64,000 nt of DNA, from the NCBI GenBank assembly GCA_003344405.1, contig NOWV01000124.1:124001-188000 (forward strand). The letters run 5' to 3'. This document shows, one piece after another, positions 7,976-32,555 of this stretch; position 1 is the first letter of the stretch; every line of letters begins with the position of its first letter. The translations under genes were made by a program, and so were the position numbers. The notes below the pieces were generated by a model that saw nothing but the letters and a program-made list of their open reading frames with translations, did no database searches and was not told where the DNA came from. This DNA comes from Trichoplax sp. H2. Taxonomy: Eukaryota.

Positions 7976-8940
7976 CTAAAGAGCTAAAATTTTTCGCATT
8001 GTTTTAAAGAACTTTGCCTGAATATATTTATCAAATTTTATAATTATTAATGGATTAAGAATAGTAATATTAGCAAGAGTAGATATACAAATAGCCGAAA
8101 TGATAAATAGGGCTATACTTTCATTTTTTACTTGTCGTAACGGTTTTTGAGTTATTGCTTGTACAATGTTAAATATACAGAAAGGCCAAATATTAATGAT
8201 ATTGTAAGCTGAAATATTTATGAAAGCTCTGAGATGCTTTTGTTTTTGCGTTAGTTGCGTTTGTCTTCCATTAATATAAATACCTTTTGGGCGTACAAAA
8301 ATTTGCTGATGAACGATTATTCGCCGATATGTAATGAAAATGAACAACGATGGTAAAATAATGGCTAGAAATGAGTGTAATATCATCAAAATTGAATCTG
8401 TTATAGTTATGATCTTATCGTCACAAAATGTTGTCTCTTCCTCGTAAACTCCATTGTTCTTGGTAAAGCAACTATAATAGAAAACAGCAATAGGACTATT
8501 TCACTCATAAAAAAGATTTGCTTTTTATGACGACGATAAAATAAATTGAGAGGTCTAACGATTGCAATATAACGATCAAGACTAATTAAGCATAAATTGT
8601 AAATGGATATGCCAAGAGAAGAGAAGGGAATTTGTTGAATAGGGCGGCAAATCAAGGTTCCGTAACTGTAGCTGATCGAAGTTGATATAGTGAAGCTGAA
8701 GGCAAATATAGCTGTTACATTTGTAACGATATCAGATAAAACCCCTATCATCACTAAAGAATAAGTTGTTTTATAGACATGACGATTAGTAGCCAAAATG
8801 TATAGTAGGATAAGATTGATCAACAAACCGATAGTATTTAGCGCTATGCCTACTATTCCAAAATATACAAGAAATTGACGGAGATTTAGCCTGTCCGTTT
8901 CTACAGATATATTGCTGTAATTACTACTATTATTATCCAT
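7976..8940 (-). pseudogene. Rhodopsin-class (class A) GPCR, intronless, split by a frameshift (pseudogene or sequence error)
   Basis: ORF 8407-8940 gives N-glycosylation sequons and TM1-TM4, with a TM3 Cys and ISLDRY. ORF 7976-8389 gives TM5-TM7 (IWPF, LNPLI..KFD). Near 8455-8462 a frame change restores NGVYEEETTFCDDKIITITDSILMILHS, an ECL2 with its conserved Cys leading into the second ORF. Confidence 0.85.
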
Positions 8941-10379
8941 ATATAAGAGGATAGTATAACATCAGTTAACTGCAAATAAAATTTGATTCAGGTAATTCGA
9001 TACGTATTCCAGAAATTAGTTTAAATCCTTGAAGATATCAAAGATATGAAAATGTTATGGAAATTAACATTAAAACCTAGATATGAATTATAAAATAACC
9101 CTAATAGTTGAGATTTTTGTGCTTGTTTATGAGAAATGAAATAGCAAATTCTTGGTGGTAAGGTCATAATATATTAGATTAGAAGAGGAAAACTTCTCCA
9201 ATTGGATTATAAGACATTTTGCTAGCACTTATCGAAGGTAATTAAGAAGGATGTGTTGATCAATTCAGCTAAGAAATGGCATCGTCAGACGCGGTTAAAG
9301 CCAATGTAACCGTATCACCGCTTCGTATTATAAACTATAATCGATTCGGAGACAAGCATAATATAATTTAACGGAAGTACGCGAAGAGATAGGTATATCG
9401 CGATTGAGTTTAGATTGCTTTCTATACTGACGTCATTCTTATTGAACAAATAGAAATGCGTTGTTAATAACCAGTGAAAGATTTAATCTATTGATATGTC
9501 TGATAGCACAAATTGAACTGCCAAGATTTCCGATAACATAGTTTTACAACTGTATGAGTATATAAAGAATCTATTATCTAGTTCATAAGCAGAATAGCTT
9601 GCATCTATGCCGATACAATGGACATATAGAGATTGAAAGTCCAAAGTCATTCGCTGTTATTGACTGGAAAAAAATCCTTAAGAAATATAGTACCATCAAT
9701 GAGTCAATCGTTGGTAATAATTAAAATAGCAGAACAACATTTACTTTCTCTTCAAAATATTAATATATATGAATACTGAATTGAAATTGCGCGTAGCAAT
9801 CATTATAAGTACTCTCTGAGCTCTTAATATGCTGTCGAACGGATACTGTAAAAACGGTAAAAACCGTACTGTGAAAAAAATTGAGATATTGTATCAGTGT
9901 CTTTGAGATAAATTAAATCTTCTTCTAATGAACGAATAAATTAATTTAGATGAACCTAGTTCTGCAATCAACTGCCATTATTTCGAAAACGGTTGGAGTT
10001 GCATATAGAACCAACTAATCCTTTTACAATGCATTCGATTAGAGTATCCTCAAGGTTTATGAATTACTGTACTTCAGCAACAACTTTGATTTTATCGTCT
10101 CACTATTGGTTCCGTAAGCTAACTTCCGAGCACAATACCCAAACGGATACGCCTATTTATAACGAAATTAGTCTTTTAAAGAGTATTCTTATTAATTAAG
10201 CGACTGAAATTTAATTCTACATATTCCAAAATTAAGTTGATTTGAGCTCAAAAATGGCCATCAAGAAGCCATTTCACTTTCATTGATCATTCGTGTACTG
10301 TACAGTACTATCATACAGTACAGAATACACGATACTGTAAACTGTACACTGTAACATGCCTTAGGAGAACAAGCCTTCT

Positions 10380-10710
10380 CGTCGGATGGACGGACTTATT
10401 GTACCAAATGAGGCCACCAATGTTAAAAAATGACTACTTCGTACTTACGGTAGTAAGTATGGATCTTCCATGTCTGCTTTCTAAATCTTTGGTACGAACT
10501 TCAATAATACTTACGATCTTATATAGCTATTTCCAAGCAGAAATTGACTAACAGATAATAAGATTCAGTGTAATATTACTTAATTTAGTAAAAATCAATC
10601 AAAACTAAATCGACCGTCTGGATACTTTAGTACCACCATCATAATCCTAACCAAGTGTTTGCCACCATATTTGAACGTGATGAGGCAGAAAGTGTCTGTC
10701 TGTCCAATAG
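10380..10710. mobile_element. Dispersed repeat / putative non-autonomous TIR element, copy A
   Basis: Colinear diverged similarity to 24665-25365 in several blocks (gacggac..gaggcc..aaaatgactactt; tcttccat; caagcagaa; tattactt..aaatcgacc; gatgaggc.gaaa..gtctgtc.gtcca). Ends are inverted: tggacggac versus gtctgtcca. Confidence 0.6.
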
Positions 10711-11086
10711 TGATCCATCCGGGTCTCCATCTAGTGCATGAGTACAGTACAGTACAGTAACACTCTGCAGCAAAGTACTGTTGGTACAGTAAAGTAGAGA
10801 TTGGGTATAAGTGTATAACGCGACAGCGTTACCTTGTAATGTACACTGTGCAGCAACGGCGGATATATTGCAACTGGCGTGAATGCTGTAATGTCCATCT
10901 TTTTTCACAGTTAATTGGTAATTTGATTATGGAGGAATTTCTGCTAGATTGAATAATATGCACTGATATGGCGTTAAGTTGTTAGGCATTGCTCACGATT
11001 TCCCTGTCTGACAATTGATGTTTTAAATTCATGATTCTTATACTCAGATATCTTGAAGTTATTGCTTTCAGTAAGGGAGATTGAAG

Positions 11087-12876: not shown

Positions 12877-15800
12877 TTAACCACTACACATCAAACAGGC
12901 TTCCTTATTTTCGAGAGAGCAAACCATCGCACTTTCTCTATCTTTCTGCAATTTTTCTTTATCTACAGTAAATTGTATAGCACTGGCCGCCGGCTTTGTC
13001 CGTAAATAATACATGCCAGTCTTCAGGCCCTAACACAATTACAGCAATGTAACATTCAATCGCATTTTATAAATAGCCTATTTAGCTTTCGTAGAACCCT
13101 TTAAATAGAATTGTGCGTCATTCTATATTCATACCTTTTTCCAGGCGTAAAAATGCATGCTGGTTAACTTCGCAAAATTGGGCTCAGCAATATGTACGTT
13201 AAACGATTGACTTTGATCAATGTAAGCTCCCCGATCAGCTGCCATATCGATCAAGGTTCTTTGAGAAATTTCCCATACGGTTTTATATAACGCTTTAATA
13301 TCATCTGGTATGTTGTTTATTTTCTGTGATATAAAACAATCTATACATTACTTTCTTGATTTCCGATGAAATACTAATATCATATTCAACTTATGTCTTT
13401 CCAATTTAATATTAGTACATAGTACGTACTTGAATAGAGCCGTTATTAGCAATAAGTTCATTTTTCATCATATCATTCCAAACACCCATATCCGTTAAAT
13501 CTTTCAGCAAATGCTGGTTGACCACCTATTTTCCAAAGCGGTAAAAATTTTGAACAGATTCATAAAATAAGATTATGTCCTATAAATGCTGTATCTTAGT
13601 GTTAAAACTAATATATTGTACATTGAAACGTCAAGTCCGCTTAAAAAATTATAAAATCTTATAATCATTGCAAAGTAGACTATTAGAATAACCTGGAATT
13701 CTCCTGACAAAACACGTCTAGAATAAATATTGCTTGTATACGGCTCAATTGATTCGTTATTACCAAGGATTTGAGCAGTAGAAGCCGTTGGCATTGGAGC
13801 TAATAGTAAGCTATTTCGTAAGCCATACCTATTGCATCAAATAGGGATGGTTAATAAAAACACTCCATGCACACTACTCCAGTTGACTAGCAAAAGTTTT
13901 ATGTTGTAGAACATACTTTTTGATGTCTTCTTTTAACGAATTCCAGTTCCATAAATCAGTCGGTTGCTTTTCCCACAAGTCAAATTGTAATTGCTAAAAG
14001 ATATTTCAAAAATGCCATTGTCAATGTCGTAAGTACACGAGCAAGGCAATATGATAGTATCCGTAATCATTAATTCCGACGAATAGCTACTAACCCCTTG
14101 ACTTGCTGGAGACCCCTCATAGGTTTCGTATGGACCAACTTCTTTTGCTAGCTCACAGCTAGCCTAAAGTAAGTTAGATATGTAGAATTAAATTATTGCA
14201 TAACGTAATCCACCACTACGTTCAGTATTCTACCTGTAGAGCACCATAATAAATACTTTCAAAAATTTTTATATTCAAGTCGCGAGCCTCTGGTCCATCG
14301 AACGGGAAACGCATTAGAATAAAAGCATCAGCTAATCCCTATAAGAAATTGCATAACCAAAATAAGATAGATGATAATATATAGAAATTAAGATATAATG
14401 TAAATACCTGAACTCCAATCCCGATAGGCCTATGTCTTTTGTTAGATTTCTCAGCCTACAAAAAATAGCATTCGTATAATACATTATTTCGCAATTATTC
14501 AAAGAACATTTATACGATAAATTCCACTATCAGTCAATATATTAAGGCAACACTATCGATTTACTTAACGTTTACTAATATATTAATTGCTATTCATAAT
14601 TCGCGTAGCCTACCTCCGGTACAGGATAGAAGTTAATATCTATGATTTTGTTCAGATTGCGTGTAATTACTTTAGTCACTTCCGCCAACTTATGAAAGTC
14701 AAAGGTTTTGTCAGGTCTTACGAACCGAGGTAAAGCAATCGAGGCGAGATTACATACTGCAACCTGTAAGATTGTCATATTTTTACGTCAGTTAACGGAA
14801 TAAAGATGTCAATCCGATCTAATACTCGCTAATAATTCATGTACCTCATCAGGGCTTGTATATTCTATAATTTCCGTACAAAGATTGCTGCTTTTGATTG
14901 TGCCTAAATTCTATAGAACGACACATCGATTGCTGTTACATAACTGTTAGGCAGAATTGAATATTAACGAAAATCATGTTGACAATTTGTAACTACCATA
15001 CGAACCTTTTGATTACTTTTACGATTGCACGCATCTTTATATAACATGTAAGGAGTACCAGTTTCTACTTGGGCTTCCAAGATTGCGAACCAGAGTTTTT
15101 GCGCTCGAACTTGTCGAATAAACTTTCCAGCGTTTTCATACCTGTACACGTTAATAAAAAAATAATTCTTGTTATATTATCGTCGTTAATTACAGTATTG
15201 CGTAGAATGAATGCACCCAAGCATTAAAACGTACTCTGTATATAACTTTTCAAATTCTTCGCCATAAGTATCATGTAAACCTGGACAATCATTCGGGCAC
15301 ATTAACGACCATACTCCATTTTCTTCAACTCGTTTCATAAACAAATCCGGCATCCACATTGCATAAAACAAATCTCGCGCCCTCTATACACGATATAATT
15401 ATAAGGTAGTTTTAGAAACAATGTGCAAAATCATTCGATTGCTAATTAAACAAGCTATAATTTACCTGCTCTTCTTTTCCAGTATTCTTTTTCAAGTCTA
15501 GAAAATCAAAAATATCCGGATGCCATGGCTCTAAATAGATTGCAAAAGCTCCAGGGCGCTACAAGATAGCATGCAATTTTAGCTGTTAGTTAATCTAAAT
15601 CATATTCGAATCCTTAATATGTAGTATGCTAGTTTTTACGATACCTTATTTCCACCCTGATCAACATATCTTGCTGTATTGTTGTATACTCGAAGCATTG
15701 GCACTAGTCCATTCGAATGACCATTAGTCTGTGGCAGCATGAAACAAATCGTAAAGACAATGTTAGCGAGGGAATTTTGTTGGATTACGTAAAATAGAAA

Positions 15801-18800
15801 CTAGCTTGGAAAGTAAAAGGACAATACATACCCCTGCAATATAGCTTCCAGATGATCTAATACAATGCACACTTAAGCCAATCCCACCAGCAGATTTAGA
15901 AATCAAAGCGCACTGTTTAAGTGTATCATATATACCCTAAAAGTACAATTTCAACCACCCAATTTAGATAATGCTATAGCTAAATGTTGTATGTAGACTA
16001 CATACAGTACCTCAATACTATCATCCGACATTGTAAGTAGAAAACAGCTAGATAATTGAGGTCTGCAGGTACCAGCATTAAAAAGCGTTGGCGAAGCGTG
16101 TGTAAACCAACGTTCGGACATTAAATTATATGTCTGAAAAATCAACTTTTAATGTTAAAATCGCATATCTACTATAAACTAAAATACATTCGACAATTGA
16201 CTGTAATATCTGTGATTAGAATTTTAAGGCTACCTCAATTGCACCATCGATGTCTTCCCCGTGGATACCAACAGAAACACGCATTAACATATGCTGGGGT
16301 CGCTCAGCCACTAATTGTTAAAGAATTTAATCATGATATTAATATACAGCGATTTCATACTTGAATAGCTCCATTTGTAAATGATTTGAATTATTTTAAG
16401 TTCACCTTTTTTATCAATTTTCAACAAATACGATCGCTCTAGCGTCTACATAACATAAGTGTGAATTTGATTATTGAAATATTCTCATTTAAGGCTGTGA
16501 CCGAATAATATGCTTATAGTGATGTGATGTTGGTAACAAAATCAGTAATTGCGATGGAGCCGTTGTAGATCGAAAACTGCAGATTAGTTTATCATTTATG
16601 ACAAAACTTCAATGTGATGAAATATCTTGATTGATTCCTATACATACGAGTATTGTAGTCACATAATTATAAATAGTAGGCTTAACATCAGCATGATTAT
16701 TGCTTCGGTACATACTAGGACCAGATATCACATTCGGTTTAGAAATGTATGATGACTTAAAATCTAAAATGCTACCGCTTGAGCAGTTCAGAGGAACAGC
16801 CATCAATGTAGTTTAGCGAAGTAATAAATTAAAATATCATAATAAAGAAGATATAGTGTAGTATTAACGGCAAGATACACTGTATAGTATACATGCACTG
16901 ACCTTAAAGCCAAAGAAGTTGTAGTTGTAGTCACGATCGTAAATAATTGCAGAATTTAGGCGCTATAGTAACATGAATGTTCATGTGGTGTAAATATTGC
17001 GAAAAATAGAAATGACTGCATACTTTGTAAATAATTACCTCACAATGCTTAGTTATGATTTCGTGAGTTTCTTTAGAAATCATTGGTGAATGCTTGCCAT
17101 TCTTGGGGTTAACATAATTGTATAATTCATCCATGACAACTAAAATAAGGTAAAATATTATATCAGTCATGTTTTAGTAAGATCAAGGTACTCTTAATTG
17201 ATTAACAATTCATTTGTAGCTACAGTATAACTATCTTGCAGATATCATAGTTAACGTACCACTGAAAGTTTTTTTCGTTTCTTTATGCAAATTAGAAACT
17301 GCAATACGAGCAGCAAGAAGCGCATAATCAGGATGGTTTGTAGTCATTGACGCGGCAATTTCAGCGGCCAGGGTATCTAGTTCCACAGTCGTCACACCGT
17401 TATAAATACCAGCAATTACTTTCATGGTTATAGCAGCCTACAGAAGTCAAATTTATGTAAGAGTGAGTTGAAACATACATACGCAAGTCGGCCGTTTCTA
17501 TGCTCAATTATTAATAGAACAAACTACGTAAGAATGATCATCGTAGCCACATGTCAACTAATACATATTTAAGCATTTCTTGGAAAGTAGCCAATTCGGT
17601 GCTACACCGATTAGCCATATAAAAAGAAACATTTTTCAAATTTCAACCATAGAGTTACTAAGAAAGATACTGTATCTATTTTTAGTTTTTGCTTTCAACA
17701 TAAATAATAGTATTTAATTAGATAAATTTTCACTTTTGTTACAGCTACAAAACGATAAGGCATTGAACTAATAACGAAGCAGAAGCGATTGTACAATTGC
17801 ATATACTGCATGACAGACGACAGTTTACTTCATTATTAAAGTATTTTCTTACAGTTTAAGACTCAAAATTGTGAGTCTCCTTACTCATACTCTACTATTA
17901 ACTTGGCTGTTTATTTAAAGCTCTTCTAGTTACGATACAGCAAGTCTATTTTATTTTATCTAGACTCAAAGAAAAGATCGCTTTCCTTGCATAACTTTTT
18001 GATTCTAATTACACATCCTTTTCTTTCCACGATACATTATTTTATTGCATAGTAGTTGTTTTATCTAAGGATGCATTAACCTTGATATTACGATACAGTA
18101 TGAGGGAAAATCTAAATTTCTCCATGCGAATAGCGTATCTGGAAGTTATGTGAAAGCGCTTGAAACCACTCGATAAATCATAATTTGATCTAAAATGTCC
18201 AATCATAAACTATTCCAAAAATTTTCTTCAGCAAGGTGTGAAAGACTGTTTAAATATCGGCGCCAAGTTAATGGCGCCAAAGCGGTCAATCCTTCAGCTA
18301 GAAACAATAAGTGTTTCATACTGTAAGGTACAATACGATGCTAAATGAAACGTTTGGTACACTGTACTGTACCGGTGTGATTTACCTCCACTCGTGCAGT
18401 GCAGTACAGTATGTTTACGGTGCAGAGATTGTTGCGAGTTGATATTTGGGATCAATTTCTCCTGTCTGATCTACAACTTTACTACAGTAATGCAGCTAAT
18501 GCTTATTCATCTTTGCCAGTTTACAGTACTGTACTTAACTACTCATTAATACAGGCGGACGTGGAATGTATTTGTAGGGGATTAAAAAATCGCACCTTTG
18601 TCTCCCCCCTACAAATCATGCTATAAATTCCTCATACATGGCATTAAACTACTTGCAGGCAATCCAATTTAGATGAAATTATGCTGTAGAAAGTACAACG
18701 TGGCAAGTTCACTTTGGTGTTTTGCACTGGTTCATCCTCGATGATAGATTTCGTCAATTGTGCTGCTGAAAATATTACTTGTTGGACTGACAATGGTATT

Positions 18801-19256
18801 GAAACAGTGAGTAGCTAAAAATACATGGAGAAAGATACTGCAATCTGATCTAAGAAATGTTACGCTAGTTAAGATCACGAATATGTGTCATTGGTGAATG
18901 CATCATGATAAATAATACTATAGTATGATTGAAGTTGCTAACAAGTCAACAAATTGAAGCAATTTTGTACGCTAGTGCGATTGCCATTAGATAGTCCAAC
19001 TTACCGGATCGACATGGTCGTTGTTTAAATTGTAGCAAAGCTTGGATACTCTGCTTGTTATTTTGTCAAACATGACTTTTTCCTTTCGACCGTCTAAAGA
19101 GAGAAATTGTATAAATGCATTTGGATTAAGTACGCCGACTTGGTCGTTGTACGAATTACTCTAGTCTAGATCGCTTCAATGTTAGCATTCATCCACATTA
19201 CTGCCAATTAGAAAAGTCATTGTAGCATGCTTACCTCTTTTAACGACATACATCAT
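12877..19256 (-). CDS. RRM1: Ribonucleoside-diphosphate reductase large subunit (class Ia R1), multi-exon
   Basis: Exon 1 19235-19256 (MMYVVKR), exon 2 19005-19093 ([16 protein letters not shown]), then from 17437 [26 protein letters not shown]. Internal motifs [56 protein letters not shown]-terminus ACLMCSG* with stop at 12877-12879. Introns are canonical GT-AG. Confidence 0.97.
16743..16805 (-). ncRNA. Intronic H/ACA guide RNA hairpin, predicted to target U6 snRNA U31 (SNORA79/ACA65-like)
   Basis: Lies in an RRM1 intron (16447-16902) on the sense strand. Lower stem TGATGGCT/AGTCATCA, pocket GTTCC / TTTTA, upper stem TCTGAA/TTTAGA, ACA box 14 nt after the top of the pocket. The pocket is complementary to conserved U6 UAAAA-U31-U-GGAAC. 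Confidence 0.72.
18249..18281 (-). promoter_or_regulatory. Tandem E2F-type sites with a CDE/CHR-like arrangement in RRM1 intron 2
   Basis: Minus strand reads TTTGGCGCCA (18272-18281), then TTGGCGCCG followed closely by TTTAAA (18249-18254). CpG-containing motifs are rare in this background and RRM1 is a known E2F target gene. Confidence 0.55.
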
Positions 19257-19529
19257 GGTGATTTGTAGCTGAAAGAAAATTCAATGGGGAAAAAATGAAT
19301 TTTTTTCAGTGAATTGAAGGCTAGTTAGTGTCTACAAGTTACTACACCAAATCACGAATGGCCTGCGAGCAATCTTTCGTAGCCAAGAGTGAGCACTTGT
19401 TGCCCCGGTCGGTTCAAGCCTTTTATACGTATATCAGGTGGGGTTGTACCGTACAGCACGTCAGCCTCCCACTGCCGTCCTTAGTTACCATGTTTTGCCT
19501 CATTTTCACTCAATCACTGACTCAGCCGT

Positions 19530-19810
19530 TCTGCATACTACAGTATACTGTACTCTACACGTACTGTACACTGTACTGTACAGTACTGAAGCTTGACTTT
19601 TACAATACTGTACACACAGTACAGTATTGTACAGGAAGTTTTATTTTTGCCTCCAAAAACTGAAGTTGGCGCCTTAAACGCGTCCACCAATCATCTTTCG
19701 ACTTTATATGCATAATCATGTTGAATCACGATTGGACATTGAACAAAGAGGCATTGTTGTTGGATAGCAAGACGGTCCGATACGGTATAGTCCGGTACGG
19801 TACGGTATAT
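19530..19810. promoter_or_regulatory. RRM1 upstream promoter region, possibly bidirectional
   Basis: TACAGT/ACTGTA cluster at 19535-19632, E2F-like TTGGCGCC 19666-19673, ACGCGT 19678-19683, oppositely oriented CCAAT boxes at 19687 and 19731, and CGGTA repeats 19773-19807. Confidence 0.55.
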
Positions 19811-19899: not shown

Positions 19900-22800
19900 A
19901 TGATGAAAGTCATTAAACTCCAATGGAACTCCAACGGATCCATTGTAACTAAAGTAAATAAATTAAATTAACAGTTCAATATTGTTGCCGTATAGCCCAA
20001 AATAATCCACTTCCCCGATGAAATGGTAGCCAATGAATCTGCGATGTTGTTGTTCGTTCACATTCTTACTGTATGGTATAGGTTAGCCAGCGGAATGTCA
20101 GCCGGGCTTTTCTACACAAAATGTGTCAATCGATGACTTTACGCAAAAATATCCCCAGTTTAGCAGTATTCTCCGTTGAACCATGATGGTATTACCCCCC
20201 TAAAATCGGCTTCTACTGTATGTCTATAGATAAGAGTAGATGTAGTCATCGGCTTAAGCAACATGTCAAACTATAGCAATAACAAATAAATATTTCCAGA
20301 ACAATCTGCAGGAGACATGAAACTGCAAACAATATCCCCCCATTGCCGGCGATGTTCAAAGTTCTTGGTGTCAAAATCTCCCCACAATGCAGTCGTCCTT
20401 CTTCAACAAATAATCATCAAATCAATACGTAACATGACATTAGTTGCAATTCAATGAAATACATTATTCCGTTGCATGCCTTATTAAATTGACGTCCGTA
20501 GCCGTAGGTAGAATGGATTAAACAATCACTTGGTGGAAACAATATTGTATCGTATCACGAGCCTAACAGTTAATTATTGTGTCAATACAGTATTCAAGAA
20601 AAACGGACGTCTCGGCGGTTTTCTTGAATTCTTACGAATTGATGCATGTATAGAGTAGAATGGACAGTAATCAACAATACTCGATCAACCTATTATTCTA
20701 GTGTACGTTAATTCAAGTTCTATTGCTCTACAGAGAAGACTTTTCACTAAAGAGTCCACCCTTAATGCACAATAAGTCTGAACGAAAGGCCAAATGTGAC
20801 CTTTTTACGTTATGTATTACTTTAGTTTGTGAAAACAGTATTGTCAATCAACGAGTGGACCATCGGATACGATACAGAATAACCTACTCCTATACTGTTT
20901 ATATAACTTGCAGCTATCGAAGAGACTAAATAGCCGATCTCGAATTTCCATCTTTCCCATTAGTCGTAAAACATTTTCTATGCTATAACAGTCATAGATT
21001 CATGATTGAGTTATTCATAACTCTCCACGAATCTTCCCCAGTGATCAACGCACGAGATTTTAGTCCAATTGTAGTAAATGATGTAAAGCATCATACCACT
21101 TGTCGTCAATAGTCTATCATCATGATATAACCGTCAGTCATCCAGATTATTATGGCGTTCCACTATCTATGTCATGCATTCATACATTTGTTGCATTTTA
21201 TACGATTAGCGAATGGCATAGTTTTGGCAATATTGCAATAAGAATTATAAATTAGCGAAACCAGTGGAAATTCCACGAAATATAGTACGATTTGAAGTTA
21301 ATCGCATTAATATAATTTGATTATAACTGGAATCAATAATAGTGTGCTTATTATCATGTCCAATTGATGTTAACTCTTCATTGAGCTTTGTGTTAACTTT
21401 ACCACAACATTTTCGGCTAGCAAACTTTTCGCGATGAAAGGCTTCACGAAGTCTAATTACAAATCTAGTGGTAGTACGGGCAATCGTCAACCTACGCAAA
21501 GTATTTCATGCTATGATAAAATGACTAAATGAATAGCCTTCAAAAGTCAAGTTATGCGACATCTCTTCCTATTTTGCAACGATTCTGTCAGGTTAAATAA
21601 AATTCGATTACAAAATCAGCATACAGTACTGTAGTTTACCATTATCATCAGCACTCTATTGTTAGTATGCCATTAATAATCTCTGCATATTGTACTGTAT
21701 ATTCGGTATATTCCGATGCTATCAGTAATAATTAGTCAGAGTTTAATGCTGACTAGATATCAATAACAAATTTAGTGATACTACATCATTCTATTAGTAT
21801 AACCTGTCCCGATAGTGCAGTAGCTGCAATAAAAGCTAATAACTACTAGAATAGCAAGTCCCTGATCATTCATTTACCTATTATTAAATGCTCTAATCAT
21901 TCCATGCAGGTCATAAAGTACTGCTGCAACTACTAGAATAGCAAATCCCTGATCATTCATTCACTTATTATTATTAAATACTTCAATCATTCCATGCAGG
22001 TCATAAAGTATTGCTGCACTTTCCTTTTACAACAGATTTTATTTTAGAGCACGAGAGTAATAATAGAAACAGAAATAATTGTCATTTAGATAGAAGTACA
22101 AGTGGTTCACTTTAACGAGCAAGTGAAAGACTGTGCTACCACAGTACGCGATTCAATTTTATATTTATCGTTGTGGCTATAACTCATTCACTAGCTTACG
22201 GAAAATGTAAGTATCATCAGCGATATGTCGACCAATGAGCCGACGAACGCAACATATTCCGGTATTATTGAAGAGTAAACACACAACATACACGTATGTT
22301 CCAACCATTGAGGTAAATGGAAAGAACTCTATGGTTTCAACTTCCATTTACAGAGAGCTCTTTCATGGGGCTATCACCTTCAAAGTTTGCTGCAGTAATA
22401 ACAAGTAAGAATTTTGTTTGCACACTACCGTACGCATTGCACTCGCAAATGAAGTCTTATTGTATTAAGCCAGCAAACTAACATTCATCATGGTGCACAT
22501 AACATTAGCTTAATCAAATTTTCCTATCGATTAACATGCAGTATGAATTAAGTAATGCTACGGAATCTTATACCATGAAAATAGCGATAACTACAAATCA
22601 CTTGATTTGATTTCGCCAATCCTACACAGCAAGTAAATCATCCTACAAAATTAATAACTGTAAACTAGACGTACGGTACTCTACCGGCTTCAGCACGAAA
22701 GGTGTGCAGGTATTCCTACATTTGCATAAAGTAAAATTGCCCCACAAGAGTAATAAGTAGAATCGTTTGAGAAGACCACTAGCGAATACCGTAAATACTT

Positions 22801-24580
22801 TATTTTAAAATTAGAAGTCAACACCATTAACTGCTATCACAACTTATCATGTCAACTCGTATATTGTAGTTGTTGCAGTAGATAAATATGTTACATAAAA
22901 GTAGTCTTGAAATGTTTTCATATAATGATTGCTGTAGCCTGTATAGTAAAGTCAAATTACGTCATCATCGTAATATATCATGTTAAAGATTTAATGACCA
23001 AATTTAAGCCACAATTACCCGATAGGCGATGTGCTGGTACTGTATAGTTTAGTAAGAAATTAATTAGTTCATTAGTTGTACTTGTCTATAGATCATACAA
23101 CCAGATCTTCATCAGTGCATGGCTACTCTCGTATTTCGTTAACGCTAATTAACGTATGAATCCTCTTGCTGAATCCTGTTAAGCAATTTCACGTCTACCA
23201 ATTCGTGTGCAATAGAATTGGTTAAGTTTCATACCTATTTGCCTTGACTTGCAGCTCTAACATTTCATTTTCACGAAGTAAAGTAAACGCATTCTATGGG
23301 AAAGACGCAGATGTACTGTATATAGGACGTAAAGATGTTGAAAAACATTTAAGTAGTGTTCTACTTATCGTCTATTCAGCCATAACTATCAAATTTTATG
23401 AAGTCCAACTTTATTACAGATGATCCTCGCACAGGACAACAGTTACTGGAAGATAACAAATCCGAAACACAACTATCATAGACTCCTTGATATTTTAATG
23501 TAGTGTACTTTACCGTCAATCAAATAATTAAGCTATTACAGATGCATCAACGAATAAGATAAAAGTTAGAGGAAAATAACAAATTAGCAGCAGAACTATC
23601 ATAGACTCCTTGATATCTTACTGTATTGTGCTTTACCATCAATCAAATAATTAAGCAGTAAAACAGAGTCAACCGTCAGTTACAATTATTTATCATTAAA
23701 GACTTTTAGTTAGTTCTTATCCATTTGCCTCGATAATCTGATATGCTTAATTACAGTATCGTTGCAATTGGCTCTGACTGCAGTCACTGCACCACTCAAA
23801 AGCATCGTAAGCCATCTTGTAGATCCTATTTTACTAATCAAACAGCACTACAGTAGCACGATATGCATAATATCTTTTCTATTTACTACGATATAGAGCT
23901 AAAGGAAAGAACAAAATGAATACTTTTTCATTCCTGCCTATCCATGACCATCTACACTATCGATAACCGATTCGACTCCTTTTCCAATTGTTTTCAACAA
24001 TCACTACGGAGCTTTTTGATATCATTTTGCACTTGTATTTCTAGTTTCAACTTTCTCAAGTAAGCGTATCATGGCAGACTCGATCGAATATTCGATCTTG
24101 TTGCTTGTCATCACAAACATCAAACATGTCTATGAAATCATTTTGTGTGCAATAAACGGGGCTACAAACATCAAGATGAATTCTGTGTAGCATGGAAGAC
24201 ATTGCACTTACATTTTTTTACTGTCCCTGCTTGCTTCAAGAGAGTTGCACATAAGAGCAAACATGCCGCGCAATCCTCCAAGTTTTGCAGGTAATTAATG
24301 CCAATTGGACACGAGTGATGCTCCTTTTGTATAGCATCGGATGTCCAAAGCACAGTACGCTTTACCAATCTGTCGACGCCTTACTATTCCCTATATCACG
24401 TTGACTTGAATTGTACAGTAGGTTAACTTACTATCATGATCACGCCGAGGTCGAACGTGTCACCATCGAACAGTTCGTGCGTGCTTCAACACGTTCCAGT
24501 CGACCGTTACTCGGTGTCACTGTCCCACAGGGTGACGGTGATTCAAAATTACGTCATGGTTACTCGAGTACCGTTCCATC
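19900..24580 (+). ncRNA. Candidate large, highly structured non-coding RNA divergent from RRM1 (boundaries approximate)
   Basis: No credible ORF or exon chain over about 4.7 kb. Many local stems, multibranch junctions, long-range helices and pseudoknots are visible by eye, and most wobble pairs are G-U on the + strand (A-C on the - strand). Transcription is not demonstrated. Confidence 0.5.
21841..22017 (+). repeat. Two-copy tandem duplication, ~88-bp unit
   Basis: aactactagaatagcaa.tccctgatcattcatt...aatcattccatgcaggtcataaagta.tgctgc occurs twice in direct succession. Confidence 0.9.
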
Positions 24581-24664
24581 CGTATGTCCGTATGCCATCA
24601 TTCATACGTATGATACCATACAGTACAGTACAGTACAGTACTATACTGTACTAACTATAGTTTT

Positions 24665-25365
24665 GAGATATAGACAGACGGACACTGGTTTCCAACGGAG
24701 GCCTTCAATATCGGAAAATGACTACTTAATTTGGTTCTTCCATCTCTATTTTCGAAATCATAAGTACTAATTTAAAATTGCGTTTACAGTCTTGACTGGA
24801 TCAACATCAACATGCGATTCCCCTACATTACATGTATAAAATACGATACAGCAGATTCCAATATTATACTTGTAATATAGGAGAGTCGTACAATATTGAT
24901 ATTGACACAGTCGATTCTAACCATATCGTATTTGCGAATTTGTATATTGATCCTAAAACTCTTTTCAAGCAGAACTTTGTAGCAGATACAGTACTCAATT
25001 AAGCAGTATCCTTCAACGTCTACTCGCAACCCGACTTGAGGGCAAGATTCGGGTTAACCATTTCTGTGGGTGATACAGTGTTTGTAGAGCGATTGCACTC
25101 GTTTCGGGTTCGAAAATCAACAATTTAATCGAGTTCGGGTTGCGTTTTCACTCCATTGCAGGACTCTGAAATTAAAGTTAAGATTCAATCAATGTACGCT
25201 GCACTTGAACACCATGACTGCACAGTGCACAGTAGTATTACTTCATTTAAAAAACATCAGCCAATTCAAAATCGACCATCCGAATAGTAAAGTACAGCCA
25301 TAACACGGAGGTTAGGTACAATATTTTGACGGGATGAGGCCGAAAAGGTCTGTCCGTCCACGGAT
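24665..25365. mobile_element. Dispersed repeat / putative non-autonomous TIR element, copy B (longer)
   Basis: Shares ordered blocks with 10380-10710 and has extra internal sequence. Inverted ends agacagacggac versus gtctgtccgtcca. Confidence 0.6.
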
Positions 25366-26175: not shown

Positions 26176-29100
26176 TTAAACATTAAATTCCGATACTCTC
26201 CAAAACAATACTGACAATCCTTTGGTATTTTTAGGTAATTTTTCATCATCCAATTGCTGCTTGGAACTATTCTTAAAAGTTCGGCAGCCACGACCACAAC
26301 TCACAATAAACACACTGGCAACTCCTTCAGCATAAGACGCACTATCATCTTTGCCATGACTACTACATCTTGACAGCGTTGGAGAGTCGAAACGGCAACC
26401 TGACCCTGCGTCAGATGTATCACTATCATATGCTGATGTGGTAATAATAACACTAAGCATATCGACGGAACCATAATGACCGCAACTGAGCAACGTTATG
26501 GGAGGACATTGTTCCAAACAAGATGTAGTGATCGTAATATTAGGTAAAGGTAAATTCAGTATAGCTCCCATATTAGTACCAATCCATAATAAATCATTGT
26601 AGACTAAAAGCGAAGTTACTTGAATATCATTTCCCATATCGTAGAGACTTTGCATGCCGTCGCTATCGATACCTAATAGTTATTAATTAGTCAGCAGTAA
26701 GTAATTTAATAGAAAGATAGCAAAAATGTAACAGCCATCTTGTATCAAACTAACCTGATAATACATCTGGAGCTGTATCGATAACTAGTAAACGCTCGTA
26801 ACTAATTGCATGAAATAATCGAAGAATGGAATTGCGCGAAAAAGAGACCCAAACACCGGTCTTGTAGTATATCATTTTATCAATTTTACTATCTTTCTTA
26901 ACATTGATGATAATACTTGCCTAAAGAACACATTCAACATCCAGTAAATCAAGACATTAAGGATAGCGATGATGCAAATTTACAAGAAATTGCCCTTGTT
27001 AATATCGAATAACCGCAGTATGTGCAATATCTACGCGCTGCTTACCTCTATAGATAGTGTTTCAATGTTGATGACTTTTATATTATTTTCGCAGCTACAC
27101 CAGATAGTATCTAGGGCGTCGATCATATACGTGATTGGAGTCTCAAATAAATGTATTTTAACAGCGTCGTGATTATCATTATTCCCAGATCCTAAAATAC
27201 ACAAAAAATTCGCGTCAACTATTCCAATACTGAAATTAAAAAAAATGAGCTATATTCCAGTTTAAGCCTATCTCTAGTTACCAAGATTATATACAAGAAG
27301 GTTGCCACTTGTTAATGACAAAAATACTCTATTCTTGGTATATCTACAAATAGATAAAAATGATTAATCAATAAAAGCCTAATACACGCCACTACTGCAG
27401 TATAAATACTTACAATAATTTATTTAAATTAATTAATTACGGTATGAATTGCTACTTACAGGATAGCAGTTATCGGTGCATCGTGCTGAAATATCACTTC
27501 TTTCTTTTGATCCTTTAAATGGCAACTTAAAATGCGAATACTATTACAGTGATAATTATAATAGTACCGACACAAATAAAACGAGTTAGAAGTGACGACA
27601 AATACACAGAAAAACGGTAACATTTTTTAAAAAGTTTTGCAATCCAACTCACCTCCCATTGTTTAAAGCTATCCATAACGTATTTCTTCCTTCCATATCG
27701 TCCAACCAGACGAATAATTCTTTTGTAGTATCATCCAATGAACCATAGTATGACTCTCTATCGGTATTCAATTGGGGTGATGCAGGTTCACGATCTGTAT
27801 AGTATTTACTCAATTGGCTTAATTTTAAGGATTCATTACCAAATGAATCTGGCGCATTAACTTGATTATGTGTCGTAGATTTCGCATTGTCTGCTAATTC
27901 ATTTAATGAATTTACACAATTAAAGATCTTTTACTTTGTAGTCAAAATAAAAATTTTGTAATCATCATTGAATGAAGCAAAACTACTCTACCTTCAATAG
28001 CATTAACTGCATTTGGTGTCTCGTCTGTCGATGAATTCAACTCTGAGGATGTATTTCTTTCCAAGTCATCTTTCATCGCGTTATCATCATTTGAATATGT
28101 TATTTCCATGAAGTTATTGCTAGGCTTACAATCGGCTTCAATGGTACTGACAATAATTTTGTCAGCTTGTACAGTGATATGAGGCTCATTGAGTGATGAT
28201 AACGAGTTGTTATCGTCAGTTATAGATGTCTCAATGGTTTCAGTACGATTACTTATGGAATCGACTTGGAGCTCTTTAACACTTTTCGCATGATTTAAAT
28301 TTGCTATCTTTACAATATCATTTGTGAACTGATCATTGCTATCCTCTGTCATATGTATGTTCGATCTAAAATTTAAATTGAAAGGTGCACAGGCTAACGA
28401 AGTTACACTTTCCTTCATGTCAATCACCTTATTGCATATAATCTGATCAGATTTTATAGAGAGACAATGAATTTCAGTCCTATTGGAATTGCCAAGTGCC
28501 ATCCATACAGCGCTATTCTTGTGTAAATCCTGTGTACTTGATCCAGTAATATTATAAATCATTGAATTGGCCCAACGAATTACCTACATGTAGTAGATAA
28601 TATTCAGTCACCAATACTGTCTTATCATACAGCAATGACAAAACTACTATACTGTTATTAGATGTTATTAGAATCATTACCTTTAAATTTTCTTGTTCAT
28701 TAACATCAGTATTTGGAAATTCCCAAGTACGGTCCAACTTAGGCAGTGCTTTTCTTTCCTCATCGTCATCTATGCTCTCTAAAACATCAGCAAAACTCAT
28801 TCCTTGAGCAACATTGAGCTAGTTACGTTGCTAATTACACATTTATTACCTAGACGCTTTAAAAGATCCGCAAAATCATATTTCCATGATGATTTGGCTT
28901 CAGGAGATTCAAAAGAGAACGAAAAAGTTGCTTCACTACCATCCCTAATCCAACCAAATCCGTGAAAAAATCAGTGCATCAAAATTAAATGTAATCGCCT
29001 CTTAGTCACTTAAGATGTTCTAGAGTATTTACCGGAAATTGATAGATAATTCTACCAGTGTAAATAGTAGACCGGAAGTGTTTTGTTTTTGCTCCGCCAA

Positions 29101-32100
29101 TTGATGCTTTTCCAGCAGATTTGCAGCTTGTTGCAATTTTTGCGCTAAATCTTCCGTTAGCTTCTGTGAGCAATGCTGCAGTTCCTATTAAAAGCATGCC
29201 TCGAATTAGCTGGCAGTATAACGAACAGATAGAACCAAAGAAACTGATTTAACAACCTTATGGTTGCAGTTAAGAGACTCAGAGAGTGTAGTAATTTGCC
29301 GCATAATATGTAAATCATGTTCAATTTCTTTTATTGCGCTCTTATCAGTCAATATACGAGAATTTTGCCCTACTGTTGCAGTTGATGGCGCTAAATAAAT
29401 AAAACGATAGATAGCATTTTTAGTAAATCCCTACAGGCTACGCGTATTATTGACGATTATTTTATTTTTCCAAAGTTACTATTACGATCATTGCATACCT
29501 TGACAAATGCTTATATCTCGCAAAGGCGCCATCCATTGCAGCCTATACTTAAATGTCTCACCGGAACTCATTCTTTGCATTAAATCGATATTGAGATAAA
29601 GTAGTTAATGAAGTAGCCTAACAAGCGATCTGAAAAGTTAAACTGTGATGATACCGTAAGTCTATACCTTTTAAATGTGCCAGCTCTCCGCTTAACAACA
29701 CATACCAACAGATCGGAAAAGAGAATTAAACTCCTATCCTTCCTAACTATACCTTTGCCCTTATTAATACATATCGAAAGACCGAAAGGTTAAAAGTATA
29801 GCCAAAATTAAGCTAAAGTAATCTAGTAGACTTACCAATTCAGATACGTTATCGCGTCTTATAAAGTGTCTTCCTGGTGATGCAAGCTATCCATATGAGA
29901 CAAACAATGAATATCAATTTTAATAATTGAGAATCACACTCGTAGAAATGTCGCTAGTTTCTACATACATGTGGAAAACCATCGATAAGGATTTCAATAT
30001 CACGAATTTTCTCTTCTTCCTTTTTATGCCTTTCCCTTTCTACTTTAACTTCATTCATAGAATCAGCAAGCTTTCGCAACTCTCTTAATGCAACCTTTAA
30101 ACTATCGTAATCGTGATGTGATAGAGGCGTATACTTTAACAATTCCTAATAACAACAACTTTATACGTCAATATTCAGTCCATACACAATAAGATTGAAT
30201 AATTTGTCAGCAATATGCAAGAAAATTTATCCAAGATAGATAGCTCTAGCTTCAAAAAGAATGGTCACCTTAAGCACCAAAACATATCGCGGGATTCTCT
30301 GAACGGGCATAATCATAAGATCTTGTAACGTTAATTTTTCTTTATGTTCTTTAGCACATACCTAGTAAATGACGCGTAAGATATAGACAATACGTCTTTA
30401 AAATTTCAATCTTGACTTACTTCTAAGAACTTTTGGAATCCTTCATTTGATGAATAGGCAACTGCTAATGCTTTTCTAGCTCTTGAAAAATTTATAATAA
30501 AGTTACTGTAGGCGTTAACCAGGATAACCTTGGTAAACTAAAAAAAAGCAAACCGATCCTATTAGTAACAAGTAAAACAGTACGAAGTAACGAGCGGATA
30601 ATAATAATTTTTAAGAATAGCTCATTGCCAGAAAACAAGTAAACTGTTAAGTAACATACACTTTGAAGGAATAAATCTCCTATCCTCCTTTTATTGTCGC
30701 TAGTTTCTATTCGACGGGCCAACTGATCGAGGAAAAAATCATGACACAACAAAATTTCCGGTACTTGATAGAATATGGCATTGATTAAGTTCTTATTAAT
30801 GACGATGTTATTGCTAGGATCCTTAAGAGTATTATAATAATCCTACAAAATACGGAATATGATCATCCAAAAATGTAAAAGCAATATATATTGCAGATAG
30901 GTGATTAACGCATAAATCTGATCAAGGTTAAACCAAGAAATTACATTCTACTAGCAATTTATCCTGCCTAGGTACATGTTACAGTACGTCAATATAGCGT
31001 AAAGTAACAGAATCTTTTGTAGTAAAAGTATCAGTTATCAACTGTAACTCATCCTATTTATACTTTACTTTAATTTACTTTAAGTGGTCCTTTAAATACA
31101 TTAGTAACAGAAATTGTCTTTTTCTTTAATTAAAATTATCATGTGATACTAGTAGTTCAAAAGTTGTCGAGATTCACAATAAGTTAATTCATTAATAAAG
31201 TATATAACAGTAAAAATCTTAATGTGACTTATATGGATAAAAACATGGATTAATAGTCACATGCCGTATACCTGCTTCAATGTCCGGAGAGCTGCTACGT
31301 AATTTATTTCTGTTTCTAAAAGATTTTGTAAGATATAATGTCTAGTATCCTTGAGAAAATAAATAAGAAAATTTCAGTAAGCAGGTCGTATCACTGATCT
31401 TTTCCAATTCTACGCTGGTAATCAAGATGTACCTCAATAGAGCTTATTGAGGTCGCAGCAACTGAATCCTCAGTGTTTTTATTGGTCTTATCATTTCCCA
31501 TATTTTTAATATTTGGATCTAACGGTGGTGGAGTGTCAGCAACATCATCTTCTTTTGAGTGTTGCTTTTTTGAAGTTAGTATAGGACTGCTGCTACTTGA
31601 ATTTGTCACCGAACGACCAGATACACCATGAAGAAGTATTTTACGAATCGACGGTCGTGATTTCAATTTGGGATAATGTGTTGGCACCTTAACGGCGTCA
31701 TCATCAAGAAGCAGTTTAGCTGAAAGAGCTTTAGTAAGTTTCTTATGTGTATAACTCAATGGAGAGCCTTTCTTATTTGGAAGTAAAGCTAAATCTTCTG
31801 CACTTTCAAATTTGTGAGATTTATGTCTACGACTGCCATTTCTGATTTTGGCATCAGTAGTATTGGTATCATGGGAACCATTATTTCGAATAAATGCGTT
31901 TGCATCTCCGAAACTACCACTGGACCTCATTATATCATCAACAGGTTGAATAATTGCTTGACGAGGTACTTGATAATCGTCAGTTGTAGTATCAGCTTGA
32001 GCTCGATCTCTTAAATTGTTTTCTACCGGTTTATTACTTCTAATATCGCTAGGTACACAATAATAATGTTCCTCATCGACTTGTTGTTTCTTTACTTTGC

Positions 32101-32555
32101 CGTTAGGTTCTACATCTGTTTAGGGGAAAAAATAGAAATACGCAATAGTTTTATTGATAGTTCAAGAAACTATTCAATTATAACTTAATCGTAATCTAGA
32201 GTAGCAAGTTGTCAATATTATCTTTCCATTTTATCAACAAGTGAGTGAAAACTAGTTGTGCTTCAGCAAGTAATTACTTACCTAATTTGCTGTATAATTT
32301 GTGGCGTAACGTAGGACTTGTATGCGCTGAATGAGACTTTTCTTTAGGGATCTTTTTCGATAGTAATTGGTTAGCCGAACTTACAATTAAGGAATCGGAT
32401 ATTAAACTCCTTCGATTATGTACTGCTTGTAATACTTTATCACGTCGAATTTTATTCTTGTCAGAAACGTCCAATGATTTTCTATTTTCTGCCTGATTTA
32501 CTAATTTACTATCGTCATGGCGTGCTCTAACCGAATATTTGGAGTACAATCCAAC
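26176..32555 (-). CDS. ARHGEF17: Rho guanine nucleotide exchange factor, ARHGEF17/ARHGEF10 family (DH-PH plus C-terminal beta-propeller-like region); well-supported core, 5' exons lie further upstream
   Basis: Spliced DH domain DTRHYILQNLLETEINYVAALRTLKQ..AIFYQVPEILLCHDFFL..FTKVILVNAYS..KEKLTLQDLMIMPVQRIPRYVLVLKELLKYTP. PH domain RHFIRRD..KDRSLILFSDLLVC. C-terminal repeats VWVSF, LLWIGTNMG, GHYGSV, FIVSCGRGC, VLFWRV. The DH sequence looks closer to ARHGEF17 than to ARHGEF10. Confidence 0.88.

Follow-up and report, generated by a model that had tools for sequence, protein, structure and literature searches.

A probable placozoan homologue of the 5′ guide domain of SNORA79/ACA65 in an intron of a Trichoplax ribonucleotide reductase gene

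Few pseudouridylation guides can be traced by sequence outside the vertebrates. The vertebrate guide SNORA79 (ACA65) is described as an RNA of 140 nucleotides (nt) encoded in GTF2A1, in which the 5′ hairpin is assigned to the pseudouridine (Psi) at position 31 of the U6 small nuclear RNA (snRNA) with 5 + 6 nt of pairing, and the 3′ hairpin to Psi86 with 5 + 7 nt (PMC1636440). ACA65 is assigned to U6 Psi31 and Psi86 in a second source as well, whose entry for Psi31 cites mapping and prediction papers only (PMC7960923), and together with other U6 guides it is reported to coprecipitate with WDR79 (PMC3884663). In U6 of C. elegans a single pseudouridine is reported as mapped, at the position equivalent to vertebrate 31 (PMC1276797), so the site predates the vertebrates. 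For Trichoplax two U6 genes were reported on the basis of blastn searches, and the snRNA structures of this animal are said to conform to the metazoan consensus (PMC2655684). Here we compare with these systems a hairpin in a stretch of 64,000 nt from Trichoplax sp. H2 (assembly GCA_003344405.1, contig NOWV01000124.1, positions 124,001 to 188,000 of the forward strand; this whole stretch is called the window, and its own coordinates are used throughout). It probably represents, in a placozoan, the homologue of the 5′ guide domain that SNORA79/ACA65 has in vertebrates. The intron that contains it, in sense orientation, belongs to the Trichoplax gene for the large subunit of ribonucleotide reductase (RNR).

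The anatomy of the element is that of a box H/ACA guide domain. The minimal predicted RNA occupies 16743..16805 of the minus strand and is composed of the guide hairpin, a single U, ACA and three further bases. In the minimum free energy (MFE) structure the 78-nt stretch that contains the hairpin adopts a two-tier fold, i.e. a lower stem of 8 bp, an internal loop of 5 + 5 nt, an upper stem of 6 + 4 bp and a terminal loop of 8 nt. The lower stem is formed by UGAUGGCU on the 5′ side (16798..16805), which pairs with AGUCAUCA on the 3′ side (16757-16750, i.e. 16750..16757). The pocket is formed by GUUCC (16793..16797), which is unpaired in the MFE fold and equal to the Rfam consensus, and by UUUUA (16758..16762), placed by both the MFE fold and the Rfam alignment; the same two sources define the upper stem with its loop (16763..16792), the terminal loop being CAAGCGGU (16781-16774). 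The spacer U is at 16749, the ACA box at 16746..16748 and a UUU tail at 16745-16743. Both stems are free of mismatches. The distance from the top of the pocket to ACA, calculated by script, is 14 nt, i.e. 5 nt of 3′ pocket, 8 nt of lower stem and 1 nt of spacer. In other words, a lower stem, a pocket, an upper stem and a box within the range of 14-16 nt are all in place.

The fold is also more stable than those of shuffled sequences. The predicted energy of the 78-nt stretch is -19.1 kcal/mol against a mean of -10.45 for shuffled sequences (z score -3.18), and none of 200 shuffles was as good. Fold and spacing thus agree with the initial annotation of this DNA, which had proposed a standard H/ACA hairpin with the pocket GTTCC/TTTTA and ACA at the canonical 14 nt. 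The interval given there includes the hairpin, ACA and three bases, and hence ends where the 3′ end of an H/ACA RNA is expected. The hairpin also contains UGAUGG...CUGA, and we dropped a reading of these motifs as C and D boxes: the family consensus has no CUGA at that place. The sole C/D match of Rfam in the 1 kb searched is on the opposite strand (E 6.6).

The relation to a known family was investigated with the SNORA79 model of Rfam (RF00600). The model aligns to 16805-16733 with 39.5 bits (E 6.4e-5 in the 1 kb searched), and it is the top Rfam match of the window, with an E value of 0.0041 over 64 kb and all 4227 families. The Rfam check suggested in the initial annotation therefore did return the expected family, though below the gathering score of 55 bits. 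The hairpin by itself accounts for 37.6 bits and covers model positions 1-59, so that the 5′ hairpin of RF00600 with its U6 U31 pocket is present at this locus. From the first model position up to the box, 40 of 62 are identical as counted on the alignment. Among the identical positions are all 10 pocket bases, the AAG of the terminal loop, the lower-stem core UGAUG/CAUCA and the two pairs that close the upper stem. Stem pairs that differ still pair. For the 5′ strand of the lower stem the Rfam consensus is uGAuGacc, and the Trichoplax sequence departs from it at pair 6, where G-U stands in place of a-u, and at pair 8. Pair 8 and, in the upper stem, pair 3 have c-g in the consensus and U-A in Trichoplax, with both sides changed. 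Invariant guide bases with compensated stems look like what a conserved guide would leave, although this comparison has a consensus on one side and is no test of covariation. We consider the homology of the hairpin to the 5′ hairpin of SNORA79/ACA65 well supported by these sequence comparisons. The deep conservation claimed in the initial annotation is likewise upheld, as a placozoan sequence is here set against a vertebrate consensus. A 16-nt string given there as the 5′ end of SNORA79 is the sequence of the window itself, and 13 of its 16 positions agree with the Rfam consensus.

The possibility of a chance resemblance was addressed with the pattern TGATG-3N-GTTCC-(24-38N)-TTTTA-3N-CATCA. 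The window has one occurrence of this pattern, against none in 100 shuffled versions. In metagenome contigs it was found at 48 loci, which were scored for three features, namely whether the three unspecified positions of the stem pair, whether an upper stem of 4 bp or more adjoins the pocket, and whether ACA or ANANNA follows within 2 nt. The features were present at 4, 0 and 7 of the 48 loci, respectively, and no locus had two or more of them, in contrast to the hairpin of the window, which has all three. When the 10 most promising of the 48 loci were run against Rfam (E up to 5), none matched SNORA79. We judge all 48 to be chance occurrences, and they supply no homologues. One of these metagenome contigs, L013, carries at 177-282 of its minus strand a match to the Rhizobiales small RNA Atu_At1 (57.3 bits, gathering score 60) that is unrelated to the hairpin. 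Our own scan of the intron with an H/ACA grammar was too loose to give significance and was used for geometry: shuffled introns yield about 58 hits each on average, and the stem total of the real hairpin is reached in 29 of 200.

The host gene encodes the large subunit of a class I RNR of the RRM1 type and extends approximately over 12877..19160 on the minus strand, as judged from exon reading frames, Pfam domains and protein identity. Stop-to-stop frames on this strand carry the exons, and Pfam finds the ATP-cone and Ribonuc_red_lgC domains in four of them. An exon of 72 residues is 100% identical to proteins of Trichoplax adhaerens and Trichoplax sp. H2, the next named matches being at most 88% identical. 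The host intron (16446..16902, 457 nt) is bounded by GT..AG on the minus strand, with the upstream exon at 16903..16962 and the downstream exon at 16406..16445, both delimited by open reading frames and spliced contigs. The hairpin is in sense orientation to the host and begins 97 nt past the 5′ splice site. The four neighbouring introns are of 100, 95, 76 and 120-121 nt, i.e. the host intron is 4-6 times longer.

Contigs of four sequencing runs were compared with this gene. X19 and X20 are certainly RNA, the RNA label of X16 is a guess, and X1 covers everything and is probably DNA; being contigs, none of them can show RNA ends or levels. Contigs of three of the four runs (X16, X19 and X20) join 16445 directly to 16903 and so confirm the intron. 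Pfam, protein identity and spliced contigs in this way all confirm the placement of the hairpin, made in the initial annotation, in an RRM1 intron; the gene is on the same strand as the hairpin. In X19 and X20 only the spliced form is seen and the intron is uncovered, an absence that is not evidence in such data. X16 has a contig of 513 nt that spans 16426-16920, reaching into both exons and with adapter at its end, at a depth of 12.9 as compared to 184 for the spliced form. This contig is unspliced precursor or DNA and not a processed small RNA. It stands at about 7% of the spliced depth, and the four neighbouring introns, all short, have no counterpart of it in X16. This difference may result from slow removal of the long intron or from the way in which the contigs were assembled, and as a sign of a small RNA it is at most a faint hint.

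A further feature of the same intron is found at 16538-16600 (minus strand), where AUGAUAA (16595-16589) resembles a C box and is separated by about 50 nt from CUGA (16545-16542), a D box; the distance to the 3′ splice site downstream is roughly 96 nt. The pair may mark a second small RNA, of the C/D type. Its C box has a mismatch, its terminal stem is poor, and it has no Rfam match on the minus strand.

The predicted function follows from the pocket. The target region of U6 we take to be UAAAA-UU-GGAAC, as in the initial annotation; GUUCC is antisense to GGAAC on the 3′ side of the target. On the 5′ side, UUUUA is antisense to the UAAAA of the motif that we assume. Guidance of U6 U31 is thus suggested because the pocket is identical to that of the family and U6 is nearly invariant. 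In the proposed mechanism, trimming of the spliced-out intron would stop where the H/ACA proteins (dyskerin/Cbf5, Nop10, Nhp2 and Gar1) protect it, and the trimmed RNA would end three bases past ACA, at 16743. By pairing with U6 snRNA, GUUCC and UUUUA would flank the uridine equivalent to vertebrate U31. This uridine, like the nucleotide on its 3′ side, would stay unpaired, at a distance of 14 nt from ACA, and it is the uridine that would be converted to pseudouridine. The terminal loop was also inspected for a CAB box. In CAAGCGGU an AAG is aligned with the conserved AAG of the model, and the loop falls short of the full CAB-box consensus, which we take to be of the ugAG type. The initial annotation had presented the hairpin as a U6 guide, and its equivalence to the 5′ hairpin predicted to guide U6 Psi31 is supported by the homology and the identical pocket, the target being that assigned in the cited sources (PMC1636440, PMC7960923).

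Several observations weigh against this identification. A scan of the window at the Rfam gathering threshold does not list the locus at all, since 39.5 bits fall short of 55; we attribute the shortfall to the deletion of the 74 model positions of the second hairpin. As a whole the locus is therefore outside RF00600, and we file it as a homologue of one domain of that family. The complementarity of the pocket is to the short U6 motif given above, which the U6 of Trichoplax would have to share. The contigs show spliced mRNA and one unspliced intron, and no discrete small RNA. The hairpin is identical in X1 and X16, which is of little weight as a sign of constraint in runs that differ little anywhere and represent one lineage (three substitutions, one 3-nt insertion and one 5-nt deletion at 16519 over 1.5 kb). 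No convincing second hairpin was detected in either flank when the folds were compared with shuffled sequences; known animal H/ACA RNAs have two. Moreover, the assignment of ACA65 to Psi31 is itself a prediction in the sources cited for it (PMC1636440, PMC7960923). Weighed against the fold, the Rfam match and the controls, these points leave the SNORA79/ACA65 homologue the probable reading.

The architecture of the putative RNA differs from that of the vertebrate family. The hairpin is followed by U-ACAUUU. ACAUUU departs from ANANNA at its last base and no ANANNA occurs within the next 20 nt, so the hinge H box that RF00600 has after its first hairpin is not found here, and ACA stands in its place, just as the initial annotation had it. 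The difference is a small one: the hinge of the model reads UAaAUu and the Trichoplax sequence UACAUU, i.e. one base separates the hinge-like reading from the ACA reading. The second half of the SNORA79 model gives no separate match, either in 1 kb (E up to 10) or in the window (E up to 1). A scan of the window with short motifs of the U86 guide returned one match at chance level, in a receptor exon (0.41 expected; at least one in 34 of 100 shuffles). The U86-guiding hairpin is absent, an initial observation that the 74 deleted model positions, the folding of the flanks and the motif scan all bear out. With ACA after the hairpin, no hinge box and no U86 hairpin, the domain is either 3′-terminal or the sole domain. 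Both a hairpin on its own and a two-domain RNA whose 5′ hairpin is weak and probably non-guiding are compatible with the data. The different architecture announced in the initial annotation accordingly stands as far as the loss of the U86 hairpin and of the hinge box is concerned; a truly single-hairpin form does not follow, given the ANANNA motif that precedes the hairpin by 3 nt.

This motif, AAACUA (16809..16814, minus strand), is at the place where a hinge H box would sit, and it opens the tentative but quite possible reading of the hairpin as the 3′ (ACA) half of a longer H/ACA RNA of about 140 nt, with AAACUA as hinge and a weak, AU-rich and uncertain 5′ hairpin at about 16881-16815 (16815..16881; in the grammar a lower stem of 4 bp and an upper stem of 5 bp, also in the MFE fold). 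As part of the same tentative reading, the Psi31 domain would have swapped both its place and its partner relative to the vertebrates. The hairpin is indeed followed by ACA rather than by ANANNA, as at a 3′ end, and a 147-nt stretch starting at 16884 folds into two adjacent hairpins with a z score of -2.46, matched by 4 of 200 shuffles. The length would equal the 140 nt of human SNORA79 (PMC1636440), the other H/ACA RNAs listed for Trichoplax are of two-hairpin size, including a candidate of 111 nt with two rRNA targets (PMC2655684), and independent evolution of snoRNA domains has been argued (PMC6984369). On the other side, most of the energy of the 147-nt fold comes from the known hairpin. 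The upstream part folds no better than shuffled sequences, both over the 97 nt to the splice site (z score -0.15; 88 of 200 shuffles as good) and over the 70 nt of the best candidate hairpin (z score -0.41; 70 of 200). The basal stem of the 5′ part in the MFE fold overlaps AAACUA, and by our own count its internal loop is 19 nt from the box, beyond the 14-16 nt rule. ANANNA is fairly frequent by chance in A-rich sequence; for AAACUA in an A-rich hinge we put the chance at roughly a quarter, which is an estimate and not a computed value.

It is rather unlikely, in our judgement, that the hairpin makes up the whole mature RNA, i.e. that a one-domain guide with ACA, of about 63-66 nt (from 16808 or 16805 to 16743) and similar in type to those of Archaea or trypanosomes, is stable by itself in an animal. 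Hairpin, ACA and three bases are self-contained and canonical, the Rfam alignment deletes the second hairpin entirely, and neither flank folds better than chance, the downstream 92 nt as far as ACAAUA (16656-16651) being even poorer than the upstream flank (z score +1.56; 193 of 200 shuffles as good). A non-significant fold is, however, weak evidence in flanks so rich in A and U, and the contigs do not reveal RNA ends. The accumulation of H/ACA RNAs in vertebrates and yeast depends on both hairpins, which stands against a lone hairpin. One-domain H/ACA RNAs are described from Archaea and trypanosomes and as the human AluACA RNAs (PMC6984369), but apart from AluACA no single-hairpin modification guide of an animal is described among the literature matches listed. 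A stand-alone U6 guide of about 65 nt, if true, would be the first animal example of a modification guide with a single domain. Its existence would suggest that one hairpin is enough for an H/ACA particle to assemble and survive in an animal, and that the guide hairpins for U31 and U86 were at first separate and became joined only on the line to the vertebrates.

It is improbable that the locus has no RNA product, whether as the decaying half of an ancestral snoRNA or as a chance resemblance. The score below the gathering threshold, the lack of a small-RNA signal in the contigs, the missing second hairpin and the restriction to one genome lineage could all be taken in this way, but the window-wide E value of 0.0041 and the absence of the structure from all 48 pattern matches elsewhere argue against chance, and a relic drifting in an AT-rich intron is unlikely to retain mismatch-free stems, a pocket equal to the consensus and ACA at 14 nt all together. 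Very unlikely is an RNA of about 155 nt in the vertebrate order, with ACAUUU as a degenerate hinge and a diverged 3′ hairpin up to ACAAUA: UACAUU does align with the hinge of the model, there is an ACA 92 nt downstream and the loose grammar allows a hairpin at 16714-16660 (lower stem of 6 bp with three G-U pairs, upper stem of 4 bp), but ACAUUU fails the last base of ANANNA, the downstream 92 nt fold worse than their shuffles, the multitude of loose hits in shuffled introns makes this candidate mean little, and its pocket mismatches the U86 context, for which the motif scan gave nothing above chance level.

Returning to the SNORA79/ACA65 guide domain, we read the hairpin as a genuine homologue of it, not listed before and of altered architecture. 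Filters for two hairpins, like the Rfam gathering score, hide guides that are half conserved. SnoReport expects two hairpins. The search of Hertel et al. used all 94 human H/ACA RNAs as queries against Trichoplax, for which U17 is given as the sole unambiguous H/ACA RNA, and a filter removed the candidates that SnoReport did not recognise (PMC2655684). ACA65 is absent from Table 3 and the main text of that paper, the supplement of which may list discarded candidates, and no SNORA79 homologue of placozoans or other invertebrates is described among the literature matches listed. If the identification is true, the U6 U31 guide domain has been kept nearly base for base from placozoans to vertebrates, so that the guide and the U6 modification would both go back to early animals. 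This would also support the idea that what evolves and moves is the single hairpin rather than the whole snoRNA (PMC6984369), and would offer a simple test case for the use of one-hairpin H/ACA RNAs in an animal.

Other features of the window are noted for completeness. The flanking genes are of the animal type according to Pfam and include a rhodopsin-family receptor, a RhoGEF with WD40 repeats, and EGF domains. WD40_2 and RhoGEF exons at 26176-32119 (minus strand) apparently belong to one large RhoGEF-WD40 gene that adjoins the RNR gene. The 7tm_1 receptor at 7976-8961 (minus strand) extends over two overlapping frames, with profile positions 2-127 in 8407-8961 and 123-259 in 7976-8500, a split that suggests a frameshift near 8407-8500 or a short intron there. 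At 19531-19598 (minus strand) there is a sub-threshold match to mir-101 (25.2 bits against a gathering score of 60; E 0.24). This match coincides with the tandem repeat TACTGTACACTG (period 12 or 23), and we rejected it as a palindromic simple repeat and not a microRNA. Translations of the 'CTVQYCTV' type recur at about 10250-10930, 18290-18550, 19325-19690 and 24405-24770, which suggests a dispersed repeat, and at 21841-22018 a unit of 90 nt is present in 2.0 tandem copies with 89% matches.

Among the known systems, SNORA79/ACA65 is the closest to the Trichoplax hairpin. Both have the UGAUG/CAUCA core, the GUUCC/UUUUA pocket, the closing pairs, the AAG of the loop and the 14-nt spacing, and both are encoded in introns in sense orientation; the Trichoplax locus differs in being placozoan, in having ACA instead of the hinge box and no U86 hairpin, and in its RNR host, which is not GTF2A1. 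The guides of Archaea and trypanosomes and the human AluACA RNAs are similar in architecture, in that they have one guide domain and a 3′ box, as would be the case here if the hairpin stands alone (PMC6984369). Their sequences are unrelated to that of the Trichoplax hairpin, for which a one-domain RNA is putative. The single-hairpin RNAs of trypanosomes use AGA, and the archaeal ones carry a K-turn. The small Cajal body-specific RNA pugU6-40 of Drosophila is another invertebrate H/ACA guide for U6; it targets U40, has no sequence relation to the hairpin that we could see and, unlike the predicted guide of Trichoplax, is experimentally supported (PMC3884663). The snoRNAs that Hertel et al. described in 2009, i.e. 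U17, possibly U71 and a novel H/ACA RNA of 111 nt, come from the same organism and are likewise borne by introns or host genes, and the hosts of Trichoplax snoRNAs are stated there not to be conserved in human (PMC2655684). The host described as unexpected in the initial annotation thus does differ from the human GTF2A1 (PMC1636440), and such a change of host gene is ordinary for snoRNAs.

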